This document shows, piece after piece, positions 22,225-60,202 of a stretch of DNA of 64,000 bases (position 1 is the first letter of the stretch; each line of letters opens with the position of its first letter). Source of the DNA: Alphaproteobacteria bacterium. GTDB lineage: Bacteria; Desulfobacterota; Binatia; UBA12015. Position numbers and translations under genes: made by a program. The notes below the pieces were generated by a model. It was not told where the DNA came from. It worked only from the letters and a program-made list of their open reading frames with translations, and did no database searches. The stretch is taken from assembly GCA_017853315.1 (NCBI GenBank), contig JAFMJW010000001.1:960-64959 (forward strand). Direction: 5' to 3'.

Positions 22225-24638
22225 GGCGCCGCGGCCTCGCCGATCAGGTCGGCCACCGTGCGGGCGAGCGTCTCGTCGCGGAAGGCGGCCTTCGTGACGT
22301 AGTGGTTCGCGCCGGCCTCGAGGCCGCGCAGCCGGTCCTCCTCGCGGTCCTTGTACGAGACGATCACGACCGGGAGGTCGCGCAGGCGGGCGTCGGCCCG
22401 CACCGCGCGGACGAGTTCGATGCCGGTCATCCGCGGCATGTCGACGTCGCTCACGAGCAGGTCGTAGCTCCCGGCGCGGAGCGCGTTCCACGCCTCGAGT
22501 CCGTCGACCGCGACGTCCACCTCGTAGCCGCGCTGCTCGAGGAGCTGGCGCTCGACCTCGCGGACGGTGATCGAGTCGTCCGCGACGAGGATGCGCTTGG
22601 CCTGGCGCACGGCCCGGGGCGCGATCCGCGCGCGCATCCCGCCGCCTTCGAGGCGCGCCTCGATCGAGAGCACGAGGTCGTCGACGTCGAGCACGAGCAG
22701 CGGCGAGCCGTCGTCGAGCGTCGACGCCGCCGACACGTCGGCGACCTTGCCGAGGCGCGCGTCCAGCGGCCGGACGACGATCTCCCGCTCGCCCACGAAG
22801 CCGTCGACCTCGAGCGCGAAGCGCCGCGACCCGTCCGAGAGCACGACTGCCGCGCACTCGTCGCCGCGGGGGCGCTCGCCGCCGAGCTCGAGCAGGTCGC
22901 GGGCGACCACGAGCCCGACGGCCTCCCCGTCGACCGGCACGACCGCGTGCCCCTCCGAGGTGCCGACGGAGTCGGCGGGCACCCGCAGCGCGCGGTCGAT
23001 CCGCGCGAGCGGGACCGCGAAGGGCTCGCCCGCGACCTCGACCAGCAGCACCCGCAGCACCGAGCGGGTGACCGGCAGCTGGAGCTCGAAGACCGTGCCC
23101 TCCCCCGGTCGCGTGCGAACGCGCGCCGTCCCGCCCATCTGCTGCATCATCGCGAGCACGGCGTCGAGGCCGACGCCGCGGCCCGACACGTCGGTCACCT
23201 TCTCGGCGGTCGAGAAGCCGGGCAGGAAGAGGAACTCGAGCAGCTCGCTCTCCCGCAGCCGCGAGGCGACCTCGGCGGTCGCGAGCCCGCGCTCGACGAT
23301 CGTCGTGCGCAGGCGCTCGGCGTCGATGCCGCGGCCGTCGTCGCGCACCGTGACGGCGAGGCGCCCGGCCCGGTGCGCGGCCTCGATCGAGAGCCGTCCC
23401 TCCGCGGGCTTGCCCGCCGCGGCGCGGACCTCGGGCGGCTCGAGGCCGTGGTCGACCGCGTTGCGGACGAGGTGGCCGAGCGGCGCCTCGAGCCCCGCGA
23501 GCACGTCGCGGTCGACCGGCACGTCGCGCCCCGCGACCTCGAGGCGGACCTGCTTGCCGAGAGCGCGCGCGAGATCCCGCACTTGGCGTTGCAGTCCGGC
23601 CACGGCGTCCGAGAACGGGCGCATGCGGGTCGCGATCGCCTCGCCGTAGAGGCGCTCGGCGAGAGGCGCGCTGCGCCGGGCGATCGCGTCGATCGCCTCG
23701 GTGCGCTCCGCGAGCGCGTGGCGGCCGAGGTCGACCTCCCGAGCGAGAGCCTCGACCTGCGCCTCGACCTCCGCGAGCGGCCTCTGCGCCGCGATCGCCT
23801 CGCGCAGCCGTCCGAGCCGCGCGGCGATCCCGGTCTGGCGCCGCTGCACCTCGCGAACCGCGTCGGCCGCGGGGCCGATCGAGCGGGCTTCGACCAGTGC
23901 TTCGGCCGCGAGGCCGGCGAGGCGGCCCAGCGTCTCCGGCGAGACCTTGACCGCGCGCTCCTGCGGCTCGGCGGTGGCGCGACCTGCCGCGACCGGGGGG
24001 GACGCCGGCGCGGCTGCTCGCCCCGCGTCCGCCGAAGCCTGCGTCGGCACGGTCGTCGGGGCCGAGCCCGCCGTCGACCCGGACGCGGCCACCGCCACCG
24101 CGGAAGCGAGGGCGGGTTCGCCGCCCTGCCTCGCGGCTTCGCTGGGCGCGGCCGGTGCGACGGGTGCCGGCGACCCGGGCCGTGGCGCGTCCGCAGCCGG
24201 CGGCGGCGCGGCCGCGCCGTCTCTCGGGCGTGCCTCTCCGCGCAGCGCCGCGAGCGTGTCGCGCAGGCCCGCCTCGATCGTCGCGCGCTCGCCCGCGCAC
24301 GCGGCGAGCCACGCGTCGAGATCCTCGACCGGCACGTCGCGCAGCCGCGTGAGCCAGTCGACCACCGCGAGGAACGAGTCGAGCTGCTCCGGCTCGATGG
24401 CGTGGCCGGGGGCCGCGAGCATCGCCTCCTCGAGCAGGTGCGCGAGGCCGACGGCCTCGTCGAGTCCCACGAGACGCGCAGCGCCCTTCATCGAGTGTGC
24501 GGCGCGCATCAGCGGTTCGATTCCGGACGCGTCCTGCACGCCGCGCTCGAGGCGGAGCAGACCCTCGGCGAGCGCGCCCGCGTGTTCCTCGACCTCCGCG
24601 AGGAAGAGGTCGTAGAGCGAGGCGTCGACGCCGCTCAT
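22221..24638 (-). CDS. cheA: Chemotaxis histidine kinase CheA with a C-terminal receiver domain (HPt-dimerisation-HATPase_c-CheW-REC)
   Basis: ATG at 24638 (verified). HPt AAHSMKGAARLVG, kinase core VRNAVDHG...DDGRGID...GRGVGLD, CheW-like domain, C-terminal REC ILVADDS...LLVSDVDMPRMTG...VVIVSYK. Confidence 0.85.
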   Translation of the reverse strand: MSGVDASLYDLFLAEVEEHAGALAEGLLRLERGVQDASGIEPLMRAAHSMKGAARLVGLDEAVGLAHLLEEAMLAAPGHAIEPEQLDSFLAVVDWLTRLRDVPVEDLDAWLAACAGERATIEAGLRDTLAALRGEARPRDGAAAPPPAADAPRPGSPAPVAPAAPSEAARQGGEPALASAVAVAASGSTAGSAPTTVPTQASADAGRAAAPASPPVAAGRATAEPQERAVKVSPETLGRLAGLAAEALVEARSIGPAADAVREVQRRQTGIAARLGRLREAIAAQRPLAEVEAQVEALAREVDLGRHALAERTEAIDAIARRSAPLAERLYGEAIATRMRPFSDAVAGLQRQVRDLARALGKQVRLEVAGRDVPVDRDVLAGLEAPLGHLVRNAVDHGLEPPEVRAAAGKPAEGRLSIEAAHRAGRLAVTVRDDGRGIDAERLRTTIVERGLATAEVASRLRESELLEFLFLPGFSTAEKVTDVSGRGVGLDAVLAMMQQMGGTARVRTRPGEGTVFELQLPVTRSVLRVLLVEVAGEPFAVPLARIDRALRVPADSVGTSEGHAVVPVDGEAVGLVVARDLLELGGERPRGDECAAVVLSDGSRRFALEVDGFVGEREIVVRPLDARLGKVADVSAASTLDDGSPLLVLDVDDLVLSIEARLEGGGMRARIAPRAVRQAKRILVADDSITVREVERQLLEQRGYEVDVAVDGLEAWNALRAGSYDLLVSDVDMPRMTGIELVRAVRADARLRDLPVVIVSYKDREEDRLRGLEAGANHYVTKAAFRDETLARTVADLIGEAAAP

Positions 24639-25300
24639 CCGACCGCCTCCGCCAGGCGGGCGGCGAGCCTTCGTTCGTCGAGCAGCGACACGCGCCGGCC
24701 CTCTTCCTCGACGAGGCCCGAGCTCGCGGAGCCGCTCGCGAGCGCGACGGTCGAAGGGGCCGGGCGGACGTCGGACTCCGGCACGAGTCGCAGGCCCGCG
24801 ATCTCGTCGACGGTCAGCACCCAGCCCTGCCCGAGCAGCGAGACCACGAGCAGTCGCGACCGGAGGTCGGGAGTGCCCTCCACGGCGGGCACGTCGAGGA
24901 GCGCTCCGGGGTCGCAGCAGGGGAGCAGCGTCCCTCCCGCGTTCACGAGGCCCATGAAGGCGGCGCTGCTCCGGTGGGGCACGCGCCGCACCGGCCTCGG
25001 CTCGAGCACCTCGACCGCGAGGGCGGCCGCGAGCCCGAACCACTCCGAGCGGACCCGGAAGACGAGGAGGGCGCGCGCACCCGACGCCGCCTCCTCCGAA
25101 TCCTCGCCGAGGCGCGCGGACCATTCCTCGAGGTAGCCTCCCGGCGACGGACGATCGAGCAGCGCGCGCCCGCCCTCGGAATGCGCGGGGCAGTTCCGGC
25201 AGTGGACGAGAGCCTCGAGTTCGGGACAGCTGCGGTCGCCGTCGACGCCGATCCTCGCCCAGCAGCGCTCGCCGGCCGACGCGGGAAGCGCGCGCGTCAC
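24635..25300 (-). CDS. CheW-like coupling protein with an N-terminal Cys4 motif (C-x10-C-x8-C-x2-C)
   Basis: GTG at 25300 overlaps the cheR stop (GTGA); its stop overlaps the cheA ATG (ATGA). N-terminus ERCWARIGVDGDRSCPELEALVHCRNCP, then a CheW domain LLVFRVRSEWFGLAAALAVEVLEP. Confidence 0.6.
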   Translation of the reverse strand: MTRALPASAGERCWARIGVDGDRSCPELEALVHCRNCPAHSEGGRALLDRPSPGGYLEEWSARLGEDSEEAASGARALLVFRVRSEWFGLAAALAVEVLEPRPVRRVPHRSSAAFMGLVNAGGTLLPCCDPGALLDVPAVEGTPDLRSRLLVVSLLGQGWVLTVDEIAGLRLVPESDVRPAPSTVALASGSASSGLVEEEGRRVSLLDERRLAARLAEAVG

Positions 25301-26685
25301 GACCGCGCCTCGATCCGGGCCGCGCGCGCACGAAACCGCGCCGCGCCGGGACGGTCGCCCGCGCGCTCGGCGATCGCGGCCAGGTGCACGAGCGCCTCCT
25401 CGCAGGAGGGGTCGAGGTAGACGGCGCGCTCGAGGGCGGCACGGGCCTCGTCCTCCCGGCGCTCCGCGACCAGCAGTACTCCCTGCAGGAGATGCGCCTC
25501 GGCGGAGGTGGGCTCGTGCTCGAGGTGCGCGCGCACGAGGCGACTCGCCTCGTCGAGGCGGCCCGTGTCGGCGAGCCGTCGCGCCTCGGCGAGCGACGGC
25601 CGGGTTTCGGGGGCGACGCCGCGGTCGATCGCGACGCTGCCCGTCGCCTCGGCGCCGCCCCCTCTCGCGACCTCGCCGGACGCGACCCGCCCGCCGTCGG
25701 CGGCCTCTCCTGCCCGCGCCTCGGCCGCTTCGGGGCGAGTCGCGCTCGACCGGACCGGAGCAGCGGACGGCTCGCGCGTCGCCCGGATCGGCGGCAGGGG
25801 CTGCCTCGCCGTCGCCTGCTGCGCCCCGGTGCCCGCGCGCGCGGCCCCCCCGGCCGTCGCCCGCGCGGTCTCGCGGAACGGCTCCGCGCGCTCGTCCGCC
25901 GTGGCCGCGAACGCCCCCGGTGGCCCGAAGGGGCGAAATCCGAGCGCGAGCAGCGTCGGGACCTCGCTGTGGCCGACCACCAGCATGCCGCCGGGCGCGA
26001 GCAGCGAACGCAGTGCTGCGACCACCTGCCGTCGCGCGTCGCGACCCATGTAGACGAGCGCGTTGCGGCAGAAGATCGCGTCGAACGGCCCGTCGCCCGC
26101 GAGGACGGAGGCGTCGAGCAGGTTCAGGCATCGGAACTCGACCGACTCGCGAGCCTCCGACGGCGCCTCGACGAACTCGCCGCCGTCCTCGTCCGGCCGC
26201 CTCCGGAAGCGACGCGCGGCGGGCAGGTCCTGGTTGCCGCGGAAGGCCCGCAGCGGGTAGACGCCGCGGCGCGCGACCGCGAGCGCGCCCGGATCGAGGT
26301 CGCAGGCGAGCACCCGGAAGTCGCCCGGCGAGATCCCGCCGTCGAGCAGGGTCGCGGCGATCGACCACGGCTCCTCGCCCGTGGCGCACGGGAAGCTCAG
26401 CACCCGCAGCGGGAGGTGACGTTCGCGCGCCGACCGCGTGGCGAGCTTGCCGAGGAGCTCGTACGGGGCCCGGTCGCGGAACAGCCAGGTCTCGTGCACG
26501 AGAAGGCGCGCGAGGAAGCCGTCCGCCTCGGCCGGGTCGCTGCGCAGCCGCGCGACCAGTCCGTCCTCGTCCACGCCGAGCGCCGCGCAGCGCTCGACGA
26601 CGGCCGCGTCGAGCGCTCCCGCGCCCAGCGTGGAGGCGTCGAGGCCGGCGACCTCCGCGACGAATTCCGCCGCAGGGCGACTCAC
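25297..26685 (-). CDS. cheR: Chemotaxis protein methyltransferase CheR fused to C-terminal TPR repeats
   Basis: GTG at 26685 (verified; GTGA overlap with the cheW stop). CheR_N plus SAM-MT motifs LRVLSFPCATGEEPWSIA...IFCRNALVYM. C-terminal TPR-like LEHEPTSAEAHLLQGVLL...AVYLDPSCEEALVHLA. Confidence 0.8.
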   Translation of the reverse strand: MSRPAAEFVAEVAGLDASTLGAGALDAAVVERCAALGVDEDGLVARLRSDPAEADGFLARLLVHETWLFRDRAPYELLGKLATRSARERHLPLRVLSFPCATGEEPWSIAATLLDGGISPGDFRVLACDLDPGALAVARRGVYPLRAFRGNQDLPAARRFRRRPDEDGGEFVEAPSEARESVEFRCLNLLDASVLAGDGPFDAIFCRNALVYMGRDARRQVVAALRSLLAPGGMLVVGHSEVPTLLALGFRPFGPPGAFAATADERAEPFRETARATAGGAARAGTGAQQATARQPLPPIRATREPSAAPVRSSATRPEAAEARAGEAADGGRVASGEVARGGGAEATGSVAIDRGVAPETRPSLAEARRLADTGRLDEASRLVRAHLEHEPTSAEAHLLQGVLLVAERREDEARAALERAVYLDPSCEEALVHLAAIAERAGDRPGAARFRARAARIEARS

Positions 26686-27131
26686 GCCCCTGCTCCCGCG
26701 GCCGCCCGCAACAGCTCTTCGATCTCGGGAGGCAGAAGCCCCTCGGGCCGCACGAGCTGGACGAGGTCCTCTCCCTCGGAGCCGATCGAGCCGAGCCAGC
26801 GCGCGTCGGGCGAGTCGATCGGCGGCTTCGAGAGCCGCGCCGGGTCGACCTCGATCGTGTCGACGACCCGCTCGGCGCGCAGTCCCACCGGGCCCTGCGC
26901 CCGGCGCAGCACCAGGATGCGGGTGCCGAGCGCCTCGCGGCACGGCGCGCCGCCGGCCAGCGTGCCGAGGTCGAGCACCGGCACGAGCCGGCCGTGGAGG
27001 CGCAGGATTCCCGCGACGGCAGGCGGAGCGGCCGGCACCGGTCGCAGTGCGACCGACGGGACGACCGTCTCGACGTCCCGCGCGTCGAACCCCCAGAGCG
27101 AATCCCCGACCCGGCAGCAGACGACCAGCAC
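26682..27131 (-). CDS. cheW: Chemotaxis coupling protein CheW
   Basis: 149 aa single CheW domain (ILRLHGRLVPVLDLGTL...). Non-ATG (GTG-type) start at 27131. Confidence 0.75.
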   Translation of the reverse strand: MLVVCCRVGDSLWGFDARDVETVVPSVALRPVPAAPPAVAGILRLHGRLVPVLDLGTLAGGAPCREALGTRILVLRRAQGPVGLRAERVVDTIEVDPARLSKPPIDSPDARWLGSIGSEGEDLVQLVRPEGLLPPEIEELLRAAAGAGA

Positions 27132-27146
27132 GTCCCACCGCCTGGG

Positions 27147-29309
27147 TCAGCCGGTGCGGAAGCGCGACATCTCGGTCTCGATCCCGCTCACCGCGCCGCG
27201 CAGGCGAGTCGCCGCCTCGCCGAGGTCGCTCACCGCGTCGGCCGAGCGCCGGGCGACCTCGGTGAGCTGCATCATCGCCTCGTCGATCTGCCGCGCCCCG
27301 GCCGCCTGCGCCTGCATGCCGTCGTTCACGGCGGCAAACCGCGGGATGAGCGACTGCACGCCGGAGAGGATCTCGGCGAAGCGCTCGCCTGTCGCGGCGG
27401 CCTCGGCGACGCGCCGGCGGACCTCCTCGGCGAAGCGGTCCATCTCCATCACGCCGCTCGCGACCGAGCCCTGCATCTCGCGGACGATCCGCTCGATGTC
27501 GAGCGAGGCAACCGCCGTCTGGTCCGCGAGCCGGCGGATCTCGCGCGCGACCACGGCGAAGCCGCGGCCGGCCTCGCCCGCCTTCTCGGCCTCGATCGCC
27601 GCGTTCAGCGAGAGCAGGTTCGTCTGGTCGGCGACCTTGGTGATCGTGGTGACGACCGAGCCGATGCTCGCGGCGCGCTCGCTGATCGCGGCGAGCTTCG
27701 CCGAAACCCCGCCGGTCGACTCGGCGAGCCGCACCATCGCGCCCTCGAGGTCGCCGAGGCTCGAGCGGCCCGTGTCGGCCAGGCGCGCGGTCTGGTCGCT
27801 CGCTTCCTTCACGTCGGAGATCGTCCCGACCAGGTCCTGGGCCGTCGCGGAGATCTCGCGCACGGCGGCCGCGATCTGGCTCGTCGACGCGCCGACGTCG
27901 GCCACGGTCGCCTCCTGCGTCCGGGCGGCGGCCGCGACGCCCGTCGCCGTGGACACGAGATCGACGCTCGCCTGCTGCACGCGGCCGACCAGCTGGCGCA
28001 GGGAACCCAGCATCGAGCGCACGGCGAGCAGGAGGTCGCCGGTCTCGTCGGATCCCGTCGCGCCGATCTCGACGGTCAGGTCGCCCGCGGCGACGCGGTC
28101 CGCCGCGTGGGCCGCCGCGGCGACGCGGTGGACGACCCTCTGCACGGTCCGCAGCGCGAGCCCCAGCGCGAGCAGCACGCCCGGGATCGCGATCCACAGC
28201 ACCCGGTTGCGCGCGGCGACGAGCGGGGCGAGCACCTCCATCTCGTCGACCTGCATCAGCAGTCGCCAGCTCCCGGTCTGGATCCGGGTGCCGACGTAGT
28301 ACCGCTCCGGGCCGCCCTGTCTCCCCGGGGCCAGCGAGAAGAAACTCCCGTCCTGGTCGCGGAAGAGGCCCTCGAGCTCGCTCGCGATGGGAGTCTCCTC
28401 GATGCGGTGCGTGACGAGCCCGGGCTCGGCGGTGGACGCGATGACGCGGCCGCGCCGCGAGATCAGGACGAACTCCGCGCTCTTGTAGGGTCGCTTGGCC
28501 GCGAGGTCCGCGGAGATCCGGCTCACGCTGCGGTCGATGCCCGCGACGCCGACGAAGCGCTCGCCGATCTCGATCGGCCAGGTGGTCTCGACGATCAGCT
28601 CGCCCTCGTAGTCGTAGGGCTCGGTGATCATGTACCGCTCGGGATCCTCGTCGCGGCCCCAGTTCACGTCCCACAGCCGGCTCACGCCGCCCGGGAGGTT
28701 GATGCCGGTGATCTCGGGCAGGCGCGCGTAGCGATTCTTCACGCCGCGGTACCAGAGCCCGTCGTCCATGCCGGTGAGCGGCTTGACCGAGATCTCCGCG
28801 GCGTCCCGCCTCGCCCGGAACCAGTAGGGAAGGAACCGGCCCTCGGCGTCGGTCGAGCCAGCGGGCAGCTTCGCGTTCGCCGGGTCGCGGTCGTGGCCGT
28901 CGGCGTCCTTCTCGTAGCCGAAGTACGCGCCGTAGGCGCCGGGCACGGCCGCGAGCATCCTGCGGGCGAACTCGCTCGAGACCGCGCGCTGTCCGAACAG
29001 GCCGGCGGCCTGCGCCGTCGCCATCGTGTGCGCCATCGCGACGATCGTCGCGCTCTCGCGCTCGATCGAGGACGCCGCCTCCGCGACGCGGTCGCGCAGC
29101 TCGGCCTCGGTCTGCAGCCGGATGCTCGCCTCGAAGTTCCGCAGCAGGTACCAGAGCAGTCCGGCGAGCAGGGCCACGAGCGGCAGCACGCTCAGCAGGA
29201 CGAGTTTCGCGCGCAGGCCCACCCTACGCGCACCCGGGCCGTGGCCCGGGCTTGCCGGGGTCGCGGAGGACGGCATCGCCGCCTCCCCCTCCCGGTAGGC
29301 TTCAGGCAC
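27147..29309 (-). CDS. Methyl-accepting chemotaxis protein with a periplasmic Cache-like sensor, HAMP and MA domains
   Basis: TM1 [21 protein letters not shown], ~280-aa periplasmic domain, TM2, HAMP, and the highly conserved signalling domain [39 protein letters not shown] at 29309 or ATG at 29276. Confidence 0.8.
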
Positions 29310-29634
29310 CGAGCGCGTCCTCCACGCGGGCGTGCGTCGGGATGATGCTGCCGAACCCGCTGATCTCGAAGATCTCCTTCACCGCGGGCGAGAGCGAGGC
29401 GACCGAGAACGGCTGGCCGGCTCCCTTCGCGCGCTTGGCGGCGAGCAGCAGGCTGCGCAGCCCCGCGCTGCTCACGTACTCGACGCCCTTCATGTCGACG
29501 ACGACGCGAGCGCCCCCGGCGGCGGCCATCGCGTCGATCACCGCCTTCTCGAAGTCGGCGGTCGCCGTGCCGTCGAGTCGCCCCGACGCCCGCAGCACCG
29601 TCGCTCCGCGCACCTGTTCCGCTTCGATCTTCAT
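29302..29634 (-). CDS. STAS-domain anti-sigma-factor antagonist (SpoIIAA/RsbV-like)
   Basis: ATG at 29634 overlaps the stop of the upstream kinase gene (ATGA). [20 protein letters not shown]...[19 protein letters not shown], with the phosphorylatable Ser in the SSAG context. Confidence 0.8.
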
Positions 29635-30083
29635 CCGTCGCTCCTCGGGCCGCGGCCCGCCGGGGGGGGATCGAGCCGTTTCTCGATCCGGACCCGGTTC
29701 TGGTCCCCCGTCCATTCGTAATCGACCGAATCCATCGTTTTCTTGACCATGTGGATGCCGAGCCCCCCGATCCGGCGCTCTTCGAGGGGGGAATCGAGGT
29801 CGGGCGGGGGGGCGTCCCGGAGGGGGTCGAAGCGCCGGCCCCGGTCCCGGATCTCCGCCCGGAGCCGGGTTCCGTCGAGCCCGACCTCGACCTCGATCGG
29901 CTCGGTGGAGCCTCCGTGGGTGATCGCGTTCGTCAGGAGTTCGTCGAGGGCGAGGTTGACCTGGAGGAGGGGTCCCGGCGGAATCCCGTGGTCCGTGCCG
30001 AAGGTCTCGAGGAACCCGGCCAGCCGCTCGAGGGCGGAGAGGTCGGGCGGCAGCTCGATCGTTCGGGAGTCGGCCGGGCCCAT
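29631..30083 (-). CDS. Anti-sigma-factor / STAS-kinase of the RsbW/SpoIIAB family (GHKL Ser kinase)
   Basis: ATG at 30083 (verified). N-box LALDELLTNAITHG and G-box RIGGLGIHMVKKTMD. Confidence 0.75.
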   Translation of the reverse strand: MGPADSRTIELPPDLSALERLAGFLETFGTDHGIPPGPLLQVNLALDELLTNAITHGGSTEPIEVEVGLDGTRLRAEIRDRGRRFDPLRDAPPPDLDSPLEERRIGGLGIHMVKKTMDSVDYEWTGDQNRVRIEKRLDPPPAGRGPRSDG

Positions 30084-31536: not shown

Positions 31537-33876
31537 TCAGGGCGTGGGCGTCGGCGTCGGCGCGACCGGCGGGAAGTCCGACTGGGCCCGCGACTCGAAG
31601 TCGTCCATGAAGACGGTGCCGGTCGCGGACAGGCCGAGCCCGCCGAGGAAGCCGAGCTGGATGCCGTCGATGAACACCTGGTCGTTCGGAACGCCGCTCA
31701 CCGACTGGGTGGTCCCGTTCACCTTCAGGGTGAACGAGCCGTCGTTCGTGCCCGGCCCGGTCGCCTTCACCCAGTCGATCTCGATCGCCGACCATCCCGG
31801 CTTCACGAGCGGGATCTTCGCGGTCGGGAAATTCGCGGCGTCGCCGTTGCTGCGGGCAATGCCGAAGATCTGCCAGCTGTTCGGCGCCGTGTACTGCAGG
31901 CGAAGCTCGAACGGCCGCGCTGCCGGGTCGCCCGCGAGCCGACCCGTCATCATGCGCAGGACGCGGCTCGTCGGCACCGAGAGCGTGTTCAGGTTCAGGA
32001 AGAAGCGCGCCCGGTAGCGATCCTCGAGCGCGGGCGAGGTGTCCTTCACCCACAGCTTCGCCTTGTTCGACGGCGGCGGCAGTCCCTCCGGACTGAAGAG
32101 AAGGCCCTCGGTGCCCGTGAACGCCGCCAGCGGGGACACGTACATGTGCGGCGGCGGCGCCTTGTCCGAGACCTTCGTCCACTTGTTCAGGTTCCCCGAC
32201 TCGAAGTTGTCGAAGAAGATGATGTCGAACGGCGTCGGAGTCGCGACCGGCGTCGGGGTCGCCACCGGCGTCGGGGTCGCCACCGGCGTCGGGGTCGGGA
32301 CCGGCGTCGGGGTCGGGGTCGCCGTCGGAACGGGCGTCGGGGTGGGCGTCGGCGTGGGCGTGGGCGTCGGGGCCGCCGGGCAGGCCGGGATCGTCCCGTC
32401 GACCGTGACCGTCGCCGCGGGGGTGACGTTTCCGGTCAGCGTCGGTGCGCCGCTGCGCATCCGGATGACGTTCACGCCTCCGCTCGAGCCCGCGAGCATC
32501 TGGCCCGCGATCGTGACCGACTGGCTCGCCGTGATCGTGTTCGTGCCCGCCGACCGCGAGTCCGCGTTGCCCGCCGGGGTCGAGGTGATGTTCACGTTGC
32601 ACGCTTCGAGCGTGATGGTGCCCGAGATGCTGGTCTTCAGGACGCCGGACAGCGTGATCGTGCCGTAGGTGGAATGGATGTCCGCCGCGCCGCCGCCGCC
32701 GTTGCCGGTCAGGTTGACGGTGCGCAGCAGCGTGCTGCCCTCGGCGTAGACGTCCATCGTCCCGCCGAACCCGGCGTAGTCGCCGGTTCCGGGGCCGACC
32801 GCGTCGATCGCCGTCGCCGTCGCCTGGGTGAAGGTCGTGATCGCGTAGACCGTGATGTAGCCGCCGCCGCAGGCCGTGCCGCCGTTCAGCGTGACGTCGG
32901 CGTTGATCGCGATCGCGTCCCCGGAATCGAGGGTCAGGTCGCCGCCGTCGCCGCATTGGAACTCGATGCCCGAGCCGCCGTTGCTGGAGAGGGCGCCGCC
33001 GATCGTGATCGGTCCCTGGTCGTTCGTGATGTCGATCGAGCCGCCGTAGCCGTCGGGGTTGCCGCCGTCGGCCGAGATCCTCCTGCTCGTCGTGATGGAG
33101 CCGGCCGAGGTGAAGATGCTGACCGCGCCGCCGCTGCCCGGGCCCGACGTGTCGAGCGCGCCGCCGTTGGTGCCGCCGATCGTCACGCCCGTGGCCGCCG
33201 CGATGTCGATCCCGCCGCCGAAGGCGAAGGTGCCCGCGGCGCCCGCCGAGATGTCGCGCTCGACCTGGACGTCGGCGCCGGCCGTGATGTCGACCGTGCC
33301 GGCCGCGGAATCGCTGCCGGAAGCGCTCACGTCGATCAGGCCGTTCAGGACCACGCGGCCGGTCGCGCTCAGGCTCAGGTAGCCGGCGTTCAGCCCGCTC
33401 AGGTTGATGCGCGAGATGTTGCTGCTCGCCGACTGCATCTCGATGTTGCCGTCGGTCGCCGTGATCGTGACCACGGCGTCGTCGCCGTTGCCGAAGATCC
33501 CGGACTTCGCCTGGAACGTGACCGACTTGGCGATCATGTCGACCGCTCGCGTCATGCCGCCGGCGGCGAGCGTCAGGAGCGAGTTCGTCGTGACGACGAC
33601 GTCGGAGGCCCCGAAGTCGAGCGTGCTCGGCACGGTCACCACCGGCAGGCCGGAGATGTTGCACGTGGTGCCGGCCGTCCAGCCGGCCTGGCACACGTCC
33701 GCGGCGACGGTGGCGTTCGCACGGACGGGCAGGCCGAGCAGCGCGGACGCGAGCACGACGGCTGCGGTCGCCGCGCGGCGGGCCGCGGGACCGGGACTCG
33801 AGGTCGATCGATTCAAGGGGAAACCTCCCGGAGCGGCCCGAGGGCGCTCCTTCCAGATGTCCGATCCTCCTAGCAT
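31537..33876 (-). CDS. Large secreted protein: signal peptide, Gly/Thr/Ser-rich parallel beta-helix-like repeats, PT-rich linker, C-terminal ~200-aa domain
   Basis: ATG at 33876 (verified) inside ORF 31537..34644. Signal AAVVLASALLGLPVRANA. Repetitive TITATDGNIE / GGSIDITNDQGPITIGG segments. Linker PTPTPTPTPTPVPTATPTPTPVPTPTPVATPTPVATPTP. The C-terminal domain contains W/F/Y-rich segments. Confidence 0.65.
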   Translation of the reverse strand: MLGGSDIWKERPRAAPGGFPLNRSTSSPGPAARRAATAAVVLASALLGLPVRANATVAADVCQAGWTAGTTCNISGLPVVTVPSTLDFGASDVVVTTNSLLTLAAGGMTRAVDMIAKSVTFQAKSGIFGNGDDAVVTITATDGNIEMQSASSNISRINLSGLNAGYLSLSATGRVVLNGLIDVSASGSDSAAGTVDITAGADVQVERDISAGAAGTFAFGGGIDIAAATGVTIGGTNGGALDTSGPGSGGAVSIFTSAGSITTSRRISADGGNPDGYGGSIDITNDQGPITIGGALSSNGGSGIEFQCGDGGDLTLDSGDAIAINADVTLNGGTACGGGYITVYAITTFTQATATAIDAVGPGTGDYAGFGGTMDVYAEGSTLLRTVNLTGNGGGGAADIHSTYGTITLSGVLKTSISGTITLEACNVNITSTPAGNADSRSAGTNTITASQSVTIAGQMLAGSSGGVNVIRMRSGAPTLTGNVTPAATVTVDGTIPACPAAPTPTPTPTPTPTPVPTATPTPTPVPTPTPVATPTPVATPTPVATPTPFDIIFFDNFESGNLNKWTKVSDKAPPPHMYVSPLAAFTGTEGLLFSPEGLPPPSNKAKLWVKDTSPALEDRYRARFFLNLNTLSVPTSRVLRMMTGRLAGDPAARPFELRLQYTAPNSWQIFGIARSNGDAANFPTAKIPLVKPGWSAIEIDWVKATGPGTNDGSFTLKVNGTTQSVSGVPNDQVFIDGIQLGFLGGLGLSATGTVFMDDFESRAQSDFPPVAPTPTPTP
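32225..32390 (-). repeat. Low-complexity Pro-Thr (PT) linker-encoding repeat, ~12-18-nt periodic ggcgtcggggtcgcc units
   Basis: Seen directly in the sequence; encodes the (PT)n / PTPVATPT linker. Confidence 0.7.
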
Positions 33877-34107
33877 CCTCGCCGACGGCAGGGGAGCGAA
33901 TTTCGCGATCGGGGGGCGGGGTGGCTCCGCCCCCCGATCGCGGGCCTGTCGGTCCCGACCCGTCCTGCGGCGCATTGGTCCGGCCGTGGGCCGGCTGGTA
34001 GGACCCCCGGGGGGCCGGCGGTCGCCGACCGGCCGAGGCGCCGGGGTCGGCGCCCGGGCAGCCGCGGGCCGCGGTCGGGCCCCGAAGGCGGCCCCACGGG
34101 AGGAGCC
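33877..34107. promoter_or_regulatory. Divergent intergenic region (231 nt) between the secreted beta-helix gene (-) and cmoA (+)
   Basis: Non-coding gap between divergent starts. No element assigned. Confidence 0.25.
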
Positions 34108-34833
34108 ATGACGAAGCGGGACGAGATCTACCTGGTGCCGAAGCCGATCGTCTCGGACTTCTCCTTCGGGCAGGAGACGGCGGCGGTCTTCGACGACATG
34201 CTCGATCGCTCCGTCCCCTTCTATGCCGAGATCCAGCGGATGATCACCGAGCTCGTCGGCGACTTCGCGGTCGACGGGACCAACGTCTACGACCTCGGGT
34301 GCTCGACCTGCGCGACCTTCCGCCGCCTCTCGGACCTCGAGCGCGACGTCACCTTCGTCGGGATCGACGACTCGCAGGCGATGCTCGACCGCGGCCGCGA
34401 GATCATGGAGGCGTCGGGCTTCCCCCGCCGCTACGAGCTCCAGCGGCGCGACCTCCACTCCGGGCTCGACATCCACGACGCGTCGGTCGTGATCCTCTGC
34501 CTCACCCTGCAGTTCGTGCGTCCGCTCCACCGCGAGCGCCTCATGAAGGCGATCTACGACGGCCTGAACCCGCAAGGCTGCCTGATCGTCGTCGAGAAAG
34601 TGCTCGCCGGGGAGACGCTCATGAACCGCTTCTTCATCAAGCACTACTACGACATGAAGCGGCGCAACGGGTACTCCGAGACCGAGATCGCGCAGAAGCG
34701 CGAGGCGCTCGAGAACGTGCTCATTCCCTACCGCCTCGACGAGAACGTCGCGCTCCTGCGCGGCGCCGGCTTCCGCGAGCCCGAGATCTTCTTCAAGTGG
34801 TACAACTTCTGCGGCCTGGTGGCGGTGAAGTGA
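34108..34833 (+). CDS. cmoA: Carboxy-S-adenosyl-L-methionine synthase
   Basis: Strong family match: FDDMLDRSVPFYAEIQRMI, VYDLGCSTCA, VILCLTLQFV, YDGLNPQGCLIVVEK, RRNGYSETEIAQKREALENV, WYNFCGLVAVK. Confidence 0.85.
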   Translation: MTKRDEIYLVPKPIVSDFSFGQETAAVFDDMLDRSVPFYAEIQRMITELVGDFAVDGTNVYDLGCSTCATFRRLSDLERDVTFVGIDDSQAMLDRGREIMEASGFPRRYELQRRDLHSGLDIHDASVVILCLTLQFVRPLHRERLMKAIYDGLNPQGCLIVVEKVLAGETLMNRFFIKHYYDMKRRNGYSETEIAQKREALENVLIPYRLDENVALLRGAGFREPEIFFKWYNFCGLVAVK

Positions 34834-35594
34834 GTTCGTCCGCCGCGAGTCCCCCCGGGGGCCTCCACGACCGGATCGGCCGCTTCGTCTTCGGCTGGCG
34901 CGACCTGCTCGCGCCGCTCTGCGGAATCCTCCTGCTCGTGTTCGCGAAGCCCCGTCCGTTCCTCGGCGACCCGGCCGCGGACCGGTGGCAGGACGCGCTC
35001 GGGCTGCTCGTCTGCGCCGTCGGCCAGGCGCTGCGCTTCGCCGTGATCGGCTTCGCCTACATCAAGCGCGGCGGCACCAACAAGGAGATCGACGCGCCGA
35101 AGCTGGTCGTCGAGGGCTTCTACGCCCACAGTCGCAACCCGATGTACGTCGGCAACTTCCTCCTGCTGGTCGGCCTCGCGATCCTCTGGAACTCGGCCTT
35201 CGTCACCCTGCTCGTGCTGCCCGTCATGCTGCTCGGGATCCACGCGATCGTCCGGGCGGAAGAGCGATTCCTCTCCGGGCGCTTCGGTGCCGAGTACGAC
35301 GACTACTGCCGCCGCGTGAACCGCTTCCTGCCCTCGCTGCGCGGGCTCCGCGAGACGACGTCGTCCATGCGCTTCGAGTGGAAGCGCGCGCTGCGCAAGG
35401 ACTACGGCACCTTCTTCGCGTGGACCTCGACGGCGGTCGTGTTCATGATCGTCGAGCGGCTGCACTGGTTCGGGGCGGACGCGAGTCGCGTCGCGATCCA
35501 GCGGCTGGTCGCGGCCTGGTTCCTCCTCGCGGCCGCCTGGGCGGCGACCCGCTGGGCGAAGAAGACCGGGCGCCTCGCGACCGTCGACGACTGA
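34830..35594 (+). CDS. Isoprenylcysteine-carboxyl-methyltransferase (ICMT)/phospholipid methyltransferase-family integral membrane methyltransferase
   Basis: GTG at 34830 overlaps the cmoA stop (GTGA). Motif LVVEGFYAHSRNPMYVGNFLLLVGLAILWNS...RAEERFLSGRFGAEYDDY matches the ICMT/PEMT-family C-terminal SAM-binding region. 5-6 TM helices. Confidence 0.65.
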   Translation: MSSSAASPPGGLHDRIGRFVFGWRDLLAPLCGILLLVFAKPRPFLGDPAADRWQDALGLLVCAVGQALRFAVIGFAYIKRGGTNKEIDAPKLVVEGFYAHSRNPMYVGNFLLLVGLAILWNSAFVTLLVLPVMLLGIHAIVRAEERFLSGRFGAEYDDYCRRVNRFLPSLRGLRETTSSMRFEWKRALRKDYGTFFAWTSTAVVFMIVERLHWFGADASRVAIQRLVAAWFLLAAAWAATRWAKKTGRLATVDD

Positions 35595-35601
35595 GCGCCC
35601 G

Positions 35602-37695
35602 TCAGCGGACGATCGTCTTGGCGACGAGCCGCTCGGGGGCCTGCTTCGCGAACGGCCCCGCGAAGGTCGACACGCGGCAGGTGGAGTCGCCCCGCAATTG
35701 CAGCACGAGCGGCGCCGCGAGCGCTTCGAGCGCGGGCATCGGAACGCGAACGCCCTTCAGCTGGAGCTGGGCCTTCGAGCGGCCCGCGATGCCCTCCTGG
35801 AGGAGGACCTTCGTCGCACCGGCCCAGGTGCCGCGGGTGTCCTTGTAGGCCCAGCCCCGCGGCTTCTCCTGCCACGCGGGCCCGGCGGGGATGCGAGCGC
35901 TCATCGCGAGGCTCCCCGCGGACCAGAGGCAGCCCACCCACGCGCCCTTCGTGCGCGGCGAGCCCATGTCGGCCATCGAGGTCGCATCGCCGCGGCTCCA
36001 CTTCCAGTCGACGAGCCGGGTCCCGAGCGACATGTCCTTCATCGTGATGCTCGAGGTGCCGGCGCCCGCGCAGCCGGCCGGCGGGCTCGTCGGGCAGTCG
36101 GCGAGGCACGAGGCGCTGCAGCCGTCGCCGTCCTGGAGGTTGCCGTCGTCGCAGTCCTCCGCGGCGGCGACCACGCCGTTGCCGCAGATCGTGCAGGCGG
36201 CCGTGCAGCCGTCGCCGTCGATCGCGTTGCCGTCGTCGCACTCCTCGCCCGGGTCGACCGTGCCGTTGCCGCAGCCGCACGGCCCGCCCGCGCACTCGCA
36301 GACGTCGCCGATGCCGTTCTGGTTGCCGTCGGCCTGGGTCGTGTTCGCGACCGTCGGGCAGTTGTCGACCGCGTCCTGCACCGCGTCCGCGTCGCCGTCC
36401 GCACACGCGCCGACGTCGACCTGGTCGACCGCGCTCCCGGTCGCCGGCGACTGGTAGGCGTCGCACTCGGCCTGGTTCAGGCCGACGGCAGAGCTCGTCA
36501 GGAAGGCCGCCATGATCCAGGGCGACCCGGCGGGGTTGTGGGACAGCCCGACGTTGTGGCCGAACTCGTGCACCCAGATCGCCGCCTCGATCGACGCGCT
36601 CGAAGGGTAGCGCACGACGGCGATCCCGCTGCCGCCGATGTTGCCGCATCCCACGACGTTCACGCCGGGGCCCCCGCAGTAGTTGATCGCGCGGACGACC
36701 TTGAACCGCCCCGCGCGACTGCCCAGCACGGTGCGCAGCTCGGTCGAGTCGTCGATCACGTCGAGGCCGTCGCCGGCGGTGCCGAAGGAACCGGCGCTGC
36801 CCGAGCGTGCCATCGAGGCGCAGCAGGCGACGTCTCCCTCGAAGTCGGAGCGACCGGCCATGAGGCTCGCACGCGAGAGGACCGCGTCGAGCTGCTCGGC
36901 CGTCATCGGGTTCGTGACCGCGACGTGGTTGCCCCAGGTGATCGCGGCCTCCTGCGCGCGCGCCGCGTGGTCCAGGATCGAGGGGTCGATCGACATCGCG
37001 GCCTCGCCGCCCGCGGTCGGCGCCGTCGCTTCGGCCGCGGCGTCGGTCCCGCCGTCGAGCAGCGCGAGCGACTGGGCCGCCGCGCGTTGCAGCGCCTCGG
37101 CGTTCGCGTCGCGCGATCCCGCCGTGGCGCTCCGCTCGAGCGCGGCCCGTGCCGCGGCGTCTCCGGCGAAGGCGAGCCCGCGCAGCGCCATCGCGCGCAG
37201 GTCGGTGAGCATGTCGGGGTGGGGAGAGGCCGCGGCGGCTCCCTCCGCGCCCCGGCCGTCGTCGGCCAGGTCGAGGAGGGCCGCGAGAGCCGCGCGATCG
37301 CCTCGCCCGGCGATGTACCCGAGCGCCTGCGGCGCGAGCAGGAGGGCCCGGTCCTCCTCCGGTGCGGTGGCTCCGGCGGGAGGGGAGGCGAGGAACGCGA
37401 GCAGGGCCGGCGTCGCCTCGGCACCACCGAGGTGGGTGAGGAAGGCGACCACGTTGTCGCGCCGGGGGAACGAAGGGTCGGCGAGCAGGCGGAGCAGCAC
37501 GGGCACGCCGGAGGAACCGACGACACTCCTCGCGTCCTCGGCGGTCAGCCCTTCGAACCAGGTTCGGAGGCACGCGTCTCGAACGATGCTCTCCTCGGAG
37601 ACGGCGCGCGCTGGCCCGGTGGTGAACAGCACCGAGGCGAGCACGAACGTCGCCGCGGCGGCGATGCTGGACGTTCTCGTTCCGAAACCCTTCAT
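35602..37695 (-). CDS. Secreted zinc metalloprotease ([11 protein letters not shown] zincin motif) with TSP3-like Asp-rich repeats and C-terminal myxo Cys-rich repeats
   Basis: ATG at 37695 (verified) with an AGGAG ribosome-binding site. Signal [60 protein letters not shown], repeated CGNG..D.GE.CDDGN.DGDGC. Confidence 0.7.
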
Positions 37696-44007: not shown

Positions 44008-46425
44008 TCAGTCGGAGAACGCCCGGAGCTTCACCTTCCGGTTGACCTCGGGATTCGAGTAGGTCGCCTGCCAGCAGGCGCCGGCGCTCGACACGGCCTG
44101 CACGAGGATCGGAGGCACGAGGGGCAGTTCGGGCATCGGCAGGTTCGTGCCCAGCCCCGTCGCCCGCAGGGTGCCGGCGCCGCCGTCCGCGTCGAGTTTG
44201 AAGGCGTCGAGCCCGTCGGGCAGCGCGGTCGGGTCGCGGTACTGGAACCCGGTGTCGGTCGTCGTCCAGCAGGGCGACCCGCCGCAGTCGCCGCCCGCGA
44301 GCGCCTGCGCCCGGAGCACGAGTCGCGGCACGCCGCCCGCCTGGTCGAACACGCAGAGCGCGTAGTCCTCCTCGGCGGTCGGGTCGCCGAAGTCCGCGGC
44401 CGAGACGCCTGCGTCCGCCGACCACTTCCACAGCAGGGAGTCGAGCGCGTCGTTGCGGCGGTCGAGCAGCAGGAGTCGCGCGCCGCCCGGTCTCGCCGGC
44501 GCGCACGCGGGGCGCAGCCCCGGGGCGCAGCCGACCGCGGGGTCGCAGGTCTCGCAGGCCGTGCAGGTGACGGGCGCGCCGGTGCAGGCTCCGGCGACAC
44601 ACACGTCGCCGCTCGTGCAGGCGTCGTCGTCGCTGCAGCGCCGGCCGTCGGGCTTGAGTGCGTCGGCCGGACAGGCGGTGCTCGTCCCGTCGCAGCGCTC
44701 CTGGAGGTCGCAGGGGCCGGCCGCGGGCCGGCACGTGAAGTCCGCGGCTCGGAGCGCGTCGTCCGGGCAGCCGGGCGTCGCGCCGTCGCAGGCTTCCGCG
44801 ACGTCGCAGCCGCCGGCCGCGGGCCGGCACTCGGTCCCGGCCGTTTTCATCGCGTCGGCCGGACAGGCGGGCGAGGTGCCGCTGCACTTCTCGGCGACGT
44901 CGCAGGCGCCGGTCGAGGCGCGGCAGACGAAGCCCGAGACCGCGAACTTGTCGCTCGGGCAGGTGCGGCTCGAGCCGTTGCACGTCTCGGGAGCGTCGCA
45001 GGCGCCGGCCGCCGCTCGGCAGGTCGTGCCGGCGGCGCTCGGGGGATGGGTGCAGGCGCCGGCGCCGTCGCACACGTCGTTCGAGCAGGGCAGCCCGTCC
45101 GGGGAGCAGGCCGTGCCCGCCGTCGCGAAGCCGTCGGCCGGGCACGAGCCGGAGAGCCCGTCGCAGGTCTCGGCCACGTCGCACTCCGACGCCGCCGGCC
45201 GGCAGACCGAGCCCGTCGTGATCGCGCAGGCATTCGAGCAGCATCCGCTCGCCGCCCCGTTCGACGACCCCGCGTCGCAGGACTCGTCGCCGGCCGGCAC
45301 GCCGTCGCCGCAGATCCGGACGACGTTTTCGACCGGATCCTGGCCGCCCGTGGACGACGACTCGACCGGCGTGCAGCCCTTCGCGATCACGTGGGCGGCC
45401 GTGTTGTGGTGGGCGCCCACGAACGCGAAGCAGACGTCCGCGCCGGTGATCGTGCCGCCCTCGAAGGTGTTGTCGTGCGGGAAGCCCCACGGGCCGCCGT
45501 TCTCCTGCCAGCCTTCGAGCCGGAACCCGCGGTCGGTCGACTCGGTTCCATCGAAGGCGTTGTCGTGCGAGTCGCCGCGCAGGTGGACGAGACCCTGCAC
45601 GCGGTTGCCGGAGTAGGTGCCGCCCGAGGAGTTCTTGACGAACAGGCTCGCCTTGCCGGGCCCCGGGCTCTCGAGCACGTTGCCGGTCGCGACGACGCCC
45701 GCGGACGCGAGCACGTAGAGGTTCTCGGCGGCGTTGCCGCGCGAGACGTTGTCGACGATCTCGCTGCCGTCGGCGCCGGTGCCGACGTGGATCCCCTCGT
45801 CGCCGGTTCCCTCGACGAGGTTGCCCACGACGCGGCTCCCGAGCGTCGCGCCGGCGAGTTCGATGCCGTAGCGGAGGTTCGACGGCGTGACGTTGTCGAT
45901 CACGCGGTTGGCGCTGCCGCCGTCGACGCGGATGCCGCGGCCGAAGCCGGTCACGCGGCAGTTGCGGACCTCGGCCCCGACGGCGTCCGCGACCAGCACG
46001 CCCCAGGTCTCCTCGTCGCCGCCGACGGCACCCGTGATCGAGTGGCCGTCGCAGTCCAGCACTGCGCCCGAACCGAGCACGAGCCCCGTGTGGGGACAGT
46101 TGTCGACGTCGTCGACCAGTACGAGCGCGCCCGAGACCGACGAGCCGCAGAGCGCGTCCGGGAACGGGGTGGGCACCGGGGTCGCCGTCGGCACGGCCGT
46201 GGGCGAGGGCGTCGGAGCGGCGGTGGAAGTGGGCGTGGGCGTCGGAGCGGCCGTGGGCGTCGGCGTGGGCGTCGGGTCAGCCGTGGCCGTCGGCGTCGGG
46301 GCCGGCGTCGCCGTCGGCGTCGCGTCGAGTCCCGGGCTCCCGCCGACGGCGAGGACGGGCGCCGCGAAGCCGAGCGACAGCCAGGCCGCGAGCAGGACGA
46401 GAGAGGATGCCGACCGTCGGCGCAT
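44008..46425 (-). CDS. Secreted protein: signal peptide, PT linker, right-handed parallel beta-helix (pectin-lyase-like) domain, ~7 Myxococcales Cys-rich repeats, C-terminal domain
   Basis: ATG at 46425 (verified). SLVLLAAWLSLGFAAPVLA. PT-rich ATPTATPAPTPTATADPTPTPTP. NCRVTGFGRGIRV...NRVIDNV beta-helix rungs. Repeats such as CRPAASECDVAETCDGLSGSCPADG. Confidence 0.7.
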   Translation of the reverse strand: MRRRSASSLVLLAAWLSLGFAAPVLAVGGSPGLDATPTATPAPTPTATADPTPTPTPTAAPTPTPTSTAAPTPSPTAVPTATPVPTPFPDALCGSSVSGALVLVDDVDNCPHTGLVLGSGAVLDCDGHSITGAVGGDEETWGVLVADAVGAEVRNCRVTGFGRGIRVDGGSANRVIDNVTPSNLRYGIELAGATLGSRVVGNLVEGTGDEGIHVGTGADGSEIVDNVSRGNAAENLYVLASAGVVATGNVLESPGPGKASLFVKNSSGGTYSGNRVQGLVHLRGDSHDNAFDGTESTDRGFRLEGWQENGGPWGFPHDNTFEGGTITGADVCFAFVGAHHNTAAHVIAKGCTPVESSSTGGQDPVENVVRICGDGVPAGDESCDAGSSNGAASGCCSNACAITTGSVCRPAASECDVAETCDGLSGSCPADGFATAGTACSPDGLPCSNDVCDGAGACTHPPSAAGTTCRAAAGACDAPETCNGSSRTCPSDKFAVSGFVCRASTGACDVAEKCSGTSPACPADAMKTAGTECRPAAGGCDVAEACDGATPGCPDDALRAADFTCRPAAGPCDLQERCDGTSTACPADALKPDGRRCSDDDACTSGDVCVAGACTGAPVTCTACETCDPAVGCAPGLRPACAPARPGGARLLLLDRRNDALDSLLWKWSADAGVSAADFGDPTAEEDYALCVFDQAGGVPRLVLRAQALAGGDCGGSPCWTTTDTGFQYRDPTALPDGLDAFKLDADGGAGTLRATGLGTNLPMPELPLVPPILVQAVSSAGACWQATYSNPEVNRKVKLRAFSD
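46150..46325 (-). repeat. PT-linker-encoding low-complexity repeat
   Basis: Periodic ggcgtcgg / gccgtggg units encoding TPTPTATP... Confidence 0.6.
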
Positions 46426-50895: not shown

Positions 50896-50899
50896 CCGG

Positions 50900-53354
<2,455 letters not shown>

Positions 53355-53553
53355 CGAAGACGCCGTCCTTCCTGAAGTCGGACCGATCCGGAAAGGGCCC
53401 CTCGGTGAATCCGCGGGGCACGACTTCGGACCATCCCTTTAGGGGAGCCTCGACCGGCGTGTCAACGAGACGGCCGCGACCCGAGGGCCGCGGCCGCGGA
53501 CCTTCGGGTCGCGGCCGTGACTCCGCCGAGCCGGAGCATTAGGGTCGAAGCCG
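53355..53553. promoter_or_regulatory. Divergent intergenic region between kdsB (-) and the copper ATPase gene (+)
   Basis: 199-nt gap. The small ORF 53439..53705 inside it is judged spurious. Confidence 0.25.
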
Positions 53554-55938
<2,385 letters not shown>

Positions 55939-56019
55939 CGAAGTCGTCCCTTCGCGCTGATCCGTTTCTTTACGGCCCTCGGGCGTTTTGGTATCGAAAT
56001 TGCGTGTCGGAGGGGCAGG

Positions 56020-57496: not shown

Positions 57497-58323
<827 letters not shown>

Positions 58324-58330
58324 GGCGTCG

Positions 58331-60192: not shown

Positions 60193-60202
60193 CCGAGAGC
60201 GC

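Follow-up and report, generated by a model that had tools for sequence, protein, structure and literature searches.

The DNA analysed here, hereafter the window, is a stretch of 64 kb from contig JAFMJW010000001.1, with 73% G+C and 59 genes according to a codon-usage gene call. It carries two coupled genes on the plus strand (Table 1). The upstream one is cmoA, which is predicted to encode the synthase of carboxy-S-adenosylmethionine (Cx-SAM), a derivative of S-adenosylmethionine (SAM). The downstream one encodes an integral membrane protein with the fold of the ICMT and PEMT methyltransferases. A first-pass annotation of the sequence had described the membrane gene as overlapping the end of cmoA by GTGA, and this was borne out by the sequence itself and by profile searches. 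The GTG start of the membrane gene agrees with the start position of its homologues. Three other contigs, with independent gene calls, had identical genes of 241 and 254 amino acids (aa) with an identical overlap of 4 nucleotides (nt). As the pair is bracketed by genes on the minus strand (31537-33756 and 35602-37695), it forms a two-gene operon. A scan of positions 33700-35750 detected no sigma-70-like promoter and no intrinsic terminator.

Table 1. Features of the cmoA-membrane gene pair, with positions in the window.
Feature	Position	Strand	Basis
cmoA ribosome-binding region	34095-34107	+	GGGAGGAG a few nt 5′ of the ATG, read from the sequence
cmoA, predicted Cx-SAM synthase, 241 aa	34108-34833	+	Open reading frame with ATG start; matches to TIGR00740 and E. 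coli CmoA
GTGA start/stop overlap, translational coupling	34830-34833	+	GTG 34830-34832 and cmoA stop codon TGA 34831-34833
ICMT/PEMT-fold integral membrane transferase, 254 aa, predicted Cx-SAM-dependent carboxymethyltransferase	34830-35594	+	GTG start; Pfam profiles

The window CmoA matched TIGR00740 over residues 14-241 (230.4 bits, cutoff 193.3) and aligned over its full length with E. coli CmoA (PDB 4GEK) at 39% identity (E = 4.9e-47). The stricter enterobacterial model NF011995 was not reached (172.9 vs 285). The cofactor-contact residues of E. coli CmoA have been reported, among them Arg199, which forms a salt bridge with the extra carboxylate of Cx-SAM and which ordinary SAM methyltransferases do not conserve (PMC3663124). 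Residues Y39, D62, G64, D89, F137, E164 and R199 (E. coli numbering) were all kept in the window CmoA. The same seven residues, R199 included, were invariant across all 75 CmoAs found linked to such a membrane gene in the genome search described below, where Asn132 and Asn90 of the E. coli protein were variable positions. These pair-linked CmoAs were 53-93% identical among themselves compared with 39% to E. coli CmoA. By these sequence features, the pair-linked CmoA would be a genuine Cx-SAM synthase, for which a prephenate-dependent activity is predicted.

The membrane protein scored 48.4 bits against the Pfam profile PEMT (PF04191, cutoff 25) and a borderline 24.2 bits against ICMT (PF04140, cutoff 24). 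It also matched Tribolium ICMT (Tc-ICMT, PDB 5VG9) with E = 6.6e-8. The hallmarks of the superfamily were present, namely a multi-helix membrane fold and a C-terminal cofactor region with R-H/N-P-x-Y and E-E-x-x-L-x-x-x-F-G. Among the NCBI curated models, no dedicated family covered this protein: it stayed below the cutoff of the NCBIfam isopcys_mtase model (45.8 bits vs 160), and the closest curated family, LmtA (TIGR04571), gave 83.3 bits and missed its cutoff of 325. An AlphaFold2 model built with 40 homologues had a predicted local distance difference test score of 80.9 and a predicted template-modelling score of 0.81, with low confidence at residues 79-100; the structural match to ICMT was modest. 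In a protein collection, 385 close relatives were found, typically of 250-265 aa and 46-90% identical. Public annotations name the upstream protein CmoA or ‘tRNA (cmo5U34)-methyltransferase’, and its partner ‘isoprenylcysteine carboxylmethyltransferase family protein’.

Several elements were invariant in this membrane family. These are the cofactor motifs R102-N-P-x-Y106, E144-E145-x-x-L148 and F152-G153 and, directly N-terminal to the cofactor region, a loop Y77-I-x-R80-G-G82 with 100% invariance. The family further has a C-terminal extension consisting of a basic amphipathic helix and two more, transmembrane, helices. R69, likewise invariant, aligned with Arg173 of Tc-ICMT, while R246 of Tc-ICMT aligned with I140 of the window protein, so that the second arginine is not conserved. 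In Tc-ICMT, R173 and R246 hold the carboxylate of the acceptor (PMC8358657).

We analyzed the conservation of the pair in two directions, with flanks of 10 kb at most around each related locus. In the forward direction, a profile made from 40 relatives of the membrane protein detected 547 relatives in a collection of species-representative genomes (one genome per species), and the best 80 of these 547 loci were inspected. In 75 of the 80, cmoA was directly upstream on the same strand. In one more, from a Gemmatimonadota metagenome-assembled genome (MAG; L070, 7240-10717), cmoA was 2 kb upstream, with a PAP2-superfamily gene (8013-8792) in between. In the reverse direction, a metagenome scan with a CmoA alignment gave 80 loci at 55-70% identity, where the ICMT-like gene was directly downstream in 69 and 325 nt away in one, and the contig ended too soon in nine. 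About 70 of 71 informative loci were therefore paired, with one true exception (L114). Three more CmoA matches, on contigs outside the forward list, were all (3/3) followed by a PEMT-like gene.

The pair spans at least 14 phylum-level groups, mostly as uncultured species. The carriers belong to Binatia, Myxococcales and other ‘Deltaproteobacteria’, Eisenbacteria (including the chromosome OY969801.1), Krumholzibacteriia, Gemmatimonadota, Planctomycetota (including Ca. Brocadia and the isolate Planctomycetales bacterium ZRK34, CP050848.1), Omnitrophota, Verrucomicrobiota (including Chthoniobacter flavus), Nitrospirota, Alpha- and Gammaproteobacteria (including Methylobacter), Acidobacteriota and Bacteroidota/Rhodothermaeota, with one Actinomycetota MAG. 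Conservation across taxa, which the first-pass annotation had proposed as a check, was thus found from both sides. Because the pair recurs in about 150 independent loci, the pairing is more than chance. Of the 75 genome loci, 31 had a 4-nt ATGA/GTGA overlap at the junction and five an overlap of 1 nt, and most others had a gap of 53 nt or less. The distance matrices of CmoA and of the membrane protein were correlated (r = 0.71, Mantel p about 0.001, 101 pairs).

The exceptional locus of the reverse scan, L114, has a CmoA (8-730) 59% identical to that of the window. The gene 34 nt downstream of it (764-1588) encodes a soluble class I SAM-methyltransferase-like protein of 274 aa, with the UbiE-related 2AVN as its best PDB match. 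This methyltransferase-like protein may be a further dedicated Cx-SAM transferase.

The first-pass annotation had noted the lack of a cmoB-like gene in the window, and we agree: tblastn with E. coli CmoB against the window gave a best E of 2, and the Methyltransf_9/CmoB domain was absent from Pfam scans of about 50 of its 59 predicted genes. CheR (25297-26685) was the sole other class I methyltransferase among the scanned genes. In the flanks of 169 related loci (1.65 Mb), no CmoB homologue was detected, the best hit (E = 0.077) being a generic Rossmann match.

Chorismate mutase genes form another link to Cx-SAM synthesis. Prephenate, the co-substrate of CmoA, is the product of chorismate mutase. 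In a Pfam census of the nearest upstream gene at 119 loci, DAHP_synth_1 (11 loci) and CM_2 (8 loci) were the commonest families. In seven loci, a gene for a chorismate mutase-DAHP synthase fusion preceded cmoA on the same strand at a distance of 0-141 nt; these loci belong to Eisenbacteria, Krumholzibacteriia, Gemmatimonadaceae and Acidobacteriota (four phylum-level groups). A count of 12 such loci from neighbour clustering was discarded, as KdsA and plain DAHP synthases had fallen into one cluster with the true fusions; those directly upstream number seven.

In some lineages, the link goes as far as fusion with the membrane enzyme itself. A full-library profile search with the membrane family gave 315 representatives (clustered at 50% identity) at E ≤ 1e-30. 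Five of them, of 347-417 aa (P0333, P0335, P0362, P0392 and P0365), consist of the ICMT-like domain and a C-terminal AroQ chorismate mutase domain. Precomputed Pfam assignments for these fusions were PEMT and CM_2. Their chorismate mutase domain matched the solved structures 2D8D (1.6e-9) and 1ECM (7e-5), and a local hidden Markov model of the neighbouring chorismate mutase domains recognized it at 2e-18 to 2e-13. In both fusion loci examined (L174:171-2079 and L175:5001-6805), the next gene was an overlapping or abutting CmoA gene, its product 44-45% identical to that of the window and with R199 intact. The gene order in this sub-clade is reversed, the ICMT-like-chorismate mutase gene coming before cmoA, so that three activities are encoded in two genes. 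An ICMT-like-chorismate mutase fusion adjoining cmoA suggests that the transferase depends on the product of CmoA and would be hard to explain otherwise. Among the best 150 representatives, no fusion of CmoA with the ICMT-like protein was found; the fusions seen were with chorismate mutase, PAP2 or a second ICMT-like domain.

From this genomic association, that is, the identity and coupling of the two genes, their near-obligate reciprocal pairing, the conserved CmoA residues and the association with chorismate mutase by linkage or by fusion, we infer that the membrane enzyme uses Cx-SAM. We consider it likely that the pair is a self-contained Cx-SAM module, whose membrane enzyme would carboxymethylate a membrane acceptor. 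In the proposed mechanism, CmoA would convert SAM and prephenate to Cx-SAM, and the coupled ICMT-fold enzyme would take Cx-SAM, not SAM, as its alkyl donor and would modify an inner-membrane acceptor, in the cytoplasmic leaflet, with a carboxymethyl group (+58 Da). Stoichiometric co-translation, possibly with a physical complex of CmoA and the transferase, would feed the donor straight to the membrane enzyme. Such co-translation would be useful given that cells contain far less Cx-SAM than SAM. The acceptor would most likely be a lipid common in the envelope, for example lipid A, a polyprenyl phosphate or an acidic phospholipid, modified at its anionic head group (a phosphate or carboxylate), and the product would be a carboxymethyl (glycolyl) ester.

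The Y-I-x-R-G-G loop is a candidate recognition site for the extra carboxylate of the donor, with R80 as the basic residue, because it is altered or absent in relatives that are not linked to cmoA. It reads R-I-R-R-S-G in a PAP2-fused relative without cmoA linkage and is missing from the second ICMT-like paralogues that occur in tandem. CmoB and CmoX have been reported to bind the donor carboxylate through Lys/Arg.

A CmoA with a dedicated transferase is already a known pattern. The first-pass annotation took CmoB, the tRNA-modifying enzyme, as the only established consumer of Cx-SAM. That view is outdated. TglF, a CmoB homologue, S-carboxymethylates a peptide in the 3-thiaglutamate pathway together with TglE. 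MccB's C-terminal domain uses Cx-SAM in Bacillus microcin C synthesis, together with MccS. The phage enzyme CmoX is a DNA C5-carboxymethyltransferase, producing 5-carboxymethylcytosine, and adjoins cmoA in genomes without cmoB; a phage CmoA of similar kind is an active Cx-SAM synthase. TglE/TglF, MccS/MccB and CmoA/CmoX are like the window pair in that a CmoA homologue stands beside an enzyme of a methyltransferase family that has been switched to Cx-SAM, as we propose for the window pair. However, TglF, the MccB C-terminal domain and CmoX are soluble, have the class I (Rossmann) fold and modify peptide, nucleotide-peptide or DNA substrates in niche or phage contexts, whereas the window partner is membrane-embedded, has another fold and belongs to a stand-alone pair found in hundreds of species. 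What differs, therefore, is the membrane ICMT/PEMT fold, the likely membrane substrate and the wide distribution as a stand-alone module. In the published literature searched, no link of Cx-SAM or CmoA to ICMT, PEMT, Ste14, LmtA, lipid A or phospholipid was found, in keeping with the first-pass suggestion of a possibly undescribed use of Cx-SAM.

The pair shares with E. coli CmoA/CmoB (yecO-yecP) the Cx-SAM synthase, with R199 and the cofactor contacts, and the two-cistron overlapping organization: in the E. coli locus (L001), cmoA (4703-5446) and cmoB (5443-6414) overlap by 4 nt. CmoB, however, is a soluble Rossmann enzyme with a unique N-terminal domain, in contrast to the integral membrane ICMT/PEMT-fold product of the second gene in the window. 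tRNA is an implausible substrate for the latter because its active site is intramembrane. Carriers of the window-type pair are mostly outside the gamma- and epsilon-proteobacteria, unlike those of CmoA/CmoB, whose tRNA pathway is reported chiefly from gamma-, epsilon- and some delta-proteobacteria (PMC6063277). It has been noted that cmoA and cmoB are adjacent and that other carboxymethyl acceptors are still to be discovered (PMC4482062). In E. coli K-12, the gene upstream of cmoA-cmoB is yecN (L001:4267-4662), in the same orientation and at a distance of 40 nt. Its product is a MAPEG-family inner membrane protein of unknown function, so that a small membrane protein is encoded next to the canonical cmoA as well.

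Compared with ICMT/Ste14 (Ma-ICMT, 4A2N; Tc-ICMT, 5VG9), the window family does not keep the second acceptor arginine (R246) and has the Y-I-x-R-G-G loop, the C-terminal amphipathic helix with two transmembrane helices and the cmoA linkage as features of its own. Bacteria are not known to have CaaX prenylation. The match to LmtA, the lipid A Kdo2 1-phosphate O-methyltransferase of Leptospira, is near full-length (residues 14-221 vs model positions 8-216 of 252) and reaches into the C-terminal extension. LmtA and the window enzyme alike are membrane proteins from diderm bacteria, but the window enzyme, with its score below the cutoff, is no LmtA orthologue. The reaction of LmtA is a methylation with SAM as the donor. 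Another relative, P0377 (L176:5001-6875, 624 aa), shares 41% identity with the window protein (residues 16-249) and carries a fused PAP2 lipid phosphate phosphatase domain. Its overall architecture is that of the window protein, but its loop is R-I-R-R-S-G where the window protein has Y-I-K-R-G-G, and no cmoA was found within 5 kb. P0377 is probably a SAM user, and it hints that the wider clade acts on lipid phosphates. Its neighbours include a gene of the MbnB/TglH/ChrH family.

As for the acceptor, neither neighbour clustering nor the Pfam census (119 upstream and 113 downstream positions) detected a third gene conserved with the pair, and a common membrane constituent as the acceptor fits this result. 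After chorismate mutase and DAHP synthase, the families next in the neighbour census (LAB_N, PMT_2/ArnT-like, KAS, Nfu and a second PEMT) formed small sets confined to certain lineages. PMT_2 was the commonest downstream family (7 of 113). In Ca. Brocadia (L085:8891-12442), four genes follow each other on the same strand, encoding LAB_N (121 aa, the N-terminal domain of lipid A biosynthesis proteins), CmoA, the ICMT-like protein and a PMT_2/ArnT-like GT-C glycosyltransferase. The same order was found in L109, L131, L145 and L080, a Brocadia/Planctomycetota subset, with GT-C proteins of 480-545 aa. This LAB_N/ArnT-like operon is a lead towards lipid A or a polyprenyl-phosphate-linked envelope acceptor. 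Together, R69 (the Arg173 equivalent), the proximity to LmtA, the LAB_N/ArnT-like operon and the PAP2 links favour an anionic lipid head group, that is, the phosphate of lipid A, polyprenyl or phospholipid, or a carboxylate, although these leads are lineage-restricted or indirect. The first-pass annotation had suggested a Cx-SAM-dependent transferase acting on a membrane lipid, quinone or prenylated substrate. Comparative genomics supports the transferase; nothing points to a quinone or prenylated acceptor in particular, and the weak leads are towards lipid phosphate or carboxylate.

In two loci, cmoA and the ICMT-like gene were flanked by a COX15/CtaA-like gene upstream and a cytochrome P450 gene downstream, with a fatty acid desaturase nearby (L004:4161-8066 and L006:4200-8114). 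CtaA and P450 were rejected as parts of the system, being present in only 2 of 119 loci.

In its fullest form, the proposal is that this is the first integral-membrane ICMT-fold family using Cx-SAM; that it carboxymethylates an envelope lipid (for example, the phosphate of lipid A, polyprenyl or phospholipid), which would be a previously unknown lipid modification; and that it travels as a portable two-gene module through hundreds of mostly uncultured diderm species in more than 12 phyla, with its own chorismate mutase in some lineages. We hold this fullest form to be evenly poised. Several observations weigh against Cx-SAM use or against the choice of acceptor. We know of no precedent for Cx-SAM use by an ICMT-fold enzyme, and the characterized members of the fold, ICMT, PEMT and LmtA, use SAM. 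In four of the best 80 loci (L019, L022, L023 and L071), cmoA was absent from the available flank. The neighbours of the pair in the window are unrelated to it, and its neighbourhood beyond chorismate mutase is not conserved, so that naming the acceptor is guesswork. The candidate loop falls in the low-confidence part of the structural model. Both Cx-SAM use and the acceptor are predictions from comparative genomics.

The membrane enzyme might instead be an ordinary SAM-dependent O-methyltransferase acting after the Cx-SAM chemistry, either by methyl-esterifying, in the manner of CmoM on cmo5U, a carboxymethyl group that a different Cx-SAM transferase had put in place, or by methylating the carboxyl group of Cx-SAM. 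ICMT-family enzymes are SAM-using O-methyltransferases of carboxyl or phosphate groups, the SAM-binding motifs R-x-P-x-Y and E-E-x-x-L are intact here, and the invariant R69 corresponds to a carboxylate-binding residue. Moreover, in some loci the cmoA-linked gene is immediately followed by another ICMT-like paralogue, which is divergent and lacks the R-G-G loop (L039:4922-5617 and L050:10826-11467), and P0264 (507 aa) is a tandem fusion of the two. Such tandem paralogues would fit two steps, carboxymethylation and then methyl esterification. This explanation, however, needs a third enzyme to transfer the carboxymethyl group, and conservation does not extend to any further gene. Two genes make up the whole module, and in the chorismate mutase fusions these two carry three activities. 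We therefore regard an O-methyltransferase role as unlikely.

Two other explanations concern cmoA itself. Its product could make no Cx-SAM, being a conventional methyltransferase or the source of another SAM derivative for the membrane enzyme. The modest identity to E. coli CmoA, the score below NF011995, the variable Asn132 and Asn90 and the fact that Cx-SAM activity is predicted would allow this, but the invariance of R199 and of the six other residues, the repeated linkage or fusion to chorismate mutase, which argues for prephenate as co-substrate, and the proven Cx-SAM synthase activity of a similar phage CmoA make it very unlikely. It is at least as improbable that cmoA serves the ordinary tRNA cmo5U pathway with a distant cmoB, the ICMT-like gene being a conserved neighbour with an unrelated SAM-dependent function. 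Here, our search for CmoB covered the window and the locus flanks rather than whole genomes, the protein is called CmoA by TIGR00740, an equivalog model, and gammaproteobacterial carriers such as Methylobacter (L087) come from a class that usually has cmoA-cmoB. Against it stand the near-obligate adjacency in both directions in so many phylum-level groups, the start/stop overlaps, the fusion of chorismate mutase to the membrane enzyme, the usual adjacency of cmoA and cmoB (PMC4482062), the limited distribution of the tRNA pathway (PMC6063277) and the much closer similarity of pair-linked CmoAs to each other than to E. coli CmoA.

The remainder of the window contains other gene groups. A chemotaxis/partner-switching cluster occupies 19997-30083 on the minus strand, with a response regulator-SpoIIE phosphatase, CheB, two genes (22221-25300), CheR with TPR, a methyl-accepting chemotaxis protein, a STAS anti-anti-sigma factor and an RsbW-like kinase. 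Around the operon are genes for three large predicted secreted proteins (31537-33756, 35602-37695 and 44008-46194). A long Pro-Thr linker (PTPTPT...) occurs in one of the three, which has no match in Pfam; another combines Cys-rich DUF4215 with thrombospondin type 3 repeats, and the remaining one has a beta-helix together with a disintegrin domain, which is unusual for bacteria. The chemotaxis genes, STAS/anti-sigma, META, fatty acid hydroxylase and the secreted repeat proteins were ruled out as parts of the system, as they are not co-conserved with the pair. A diderm envelope and regulatory cluster at 49028-62554 contains, on the minus strand, a kdsD-like gene (SIS and CBS domains), kdsA, pyrG and kdsB, as well as a gene for a P-type heavy-metal ATPase, followed by lptC, lptA, lptB, rpoN, hpf, ptsN, hprK and rapZ. 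The organism is thus a diderm making Kdo-containing lipopolysaccharide; these Kdo and Lpt genes, 14-27 kb downstream, are unlinked to the pair.

Cx-SAM is one of very few natural analogues of SAM. It is known from the modification of the tRNA wobble position, from two niche natural-product pathways and from a phage DNA modification, in each case with soluble Rossmann-fold transferases. If the membrane enzyme described here uses Cx-SAM, this chemistry would reach a second, unrelated fold and membrane substrates, and the presence of cmoA in many phyla not known for the CmoA/CmoB tRNA pathway would be accounted for. The automatic annotations of the two proteins as a tRNA (cmo5U34) enzyme and an isoprenylcysteine enzyme would be corrected. 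A new +58 Da modification of a lipid or of another envelope component would be predicted, which could alter the surface charge. The carboxymethyl group could also be a carboxylate handle for further ligation, as is 5-carboxymethylcytosine in phages.

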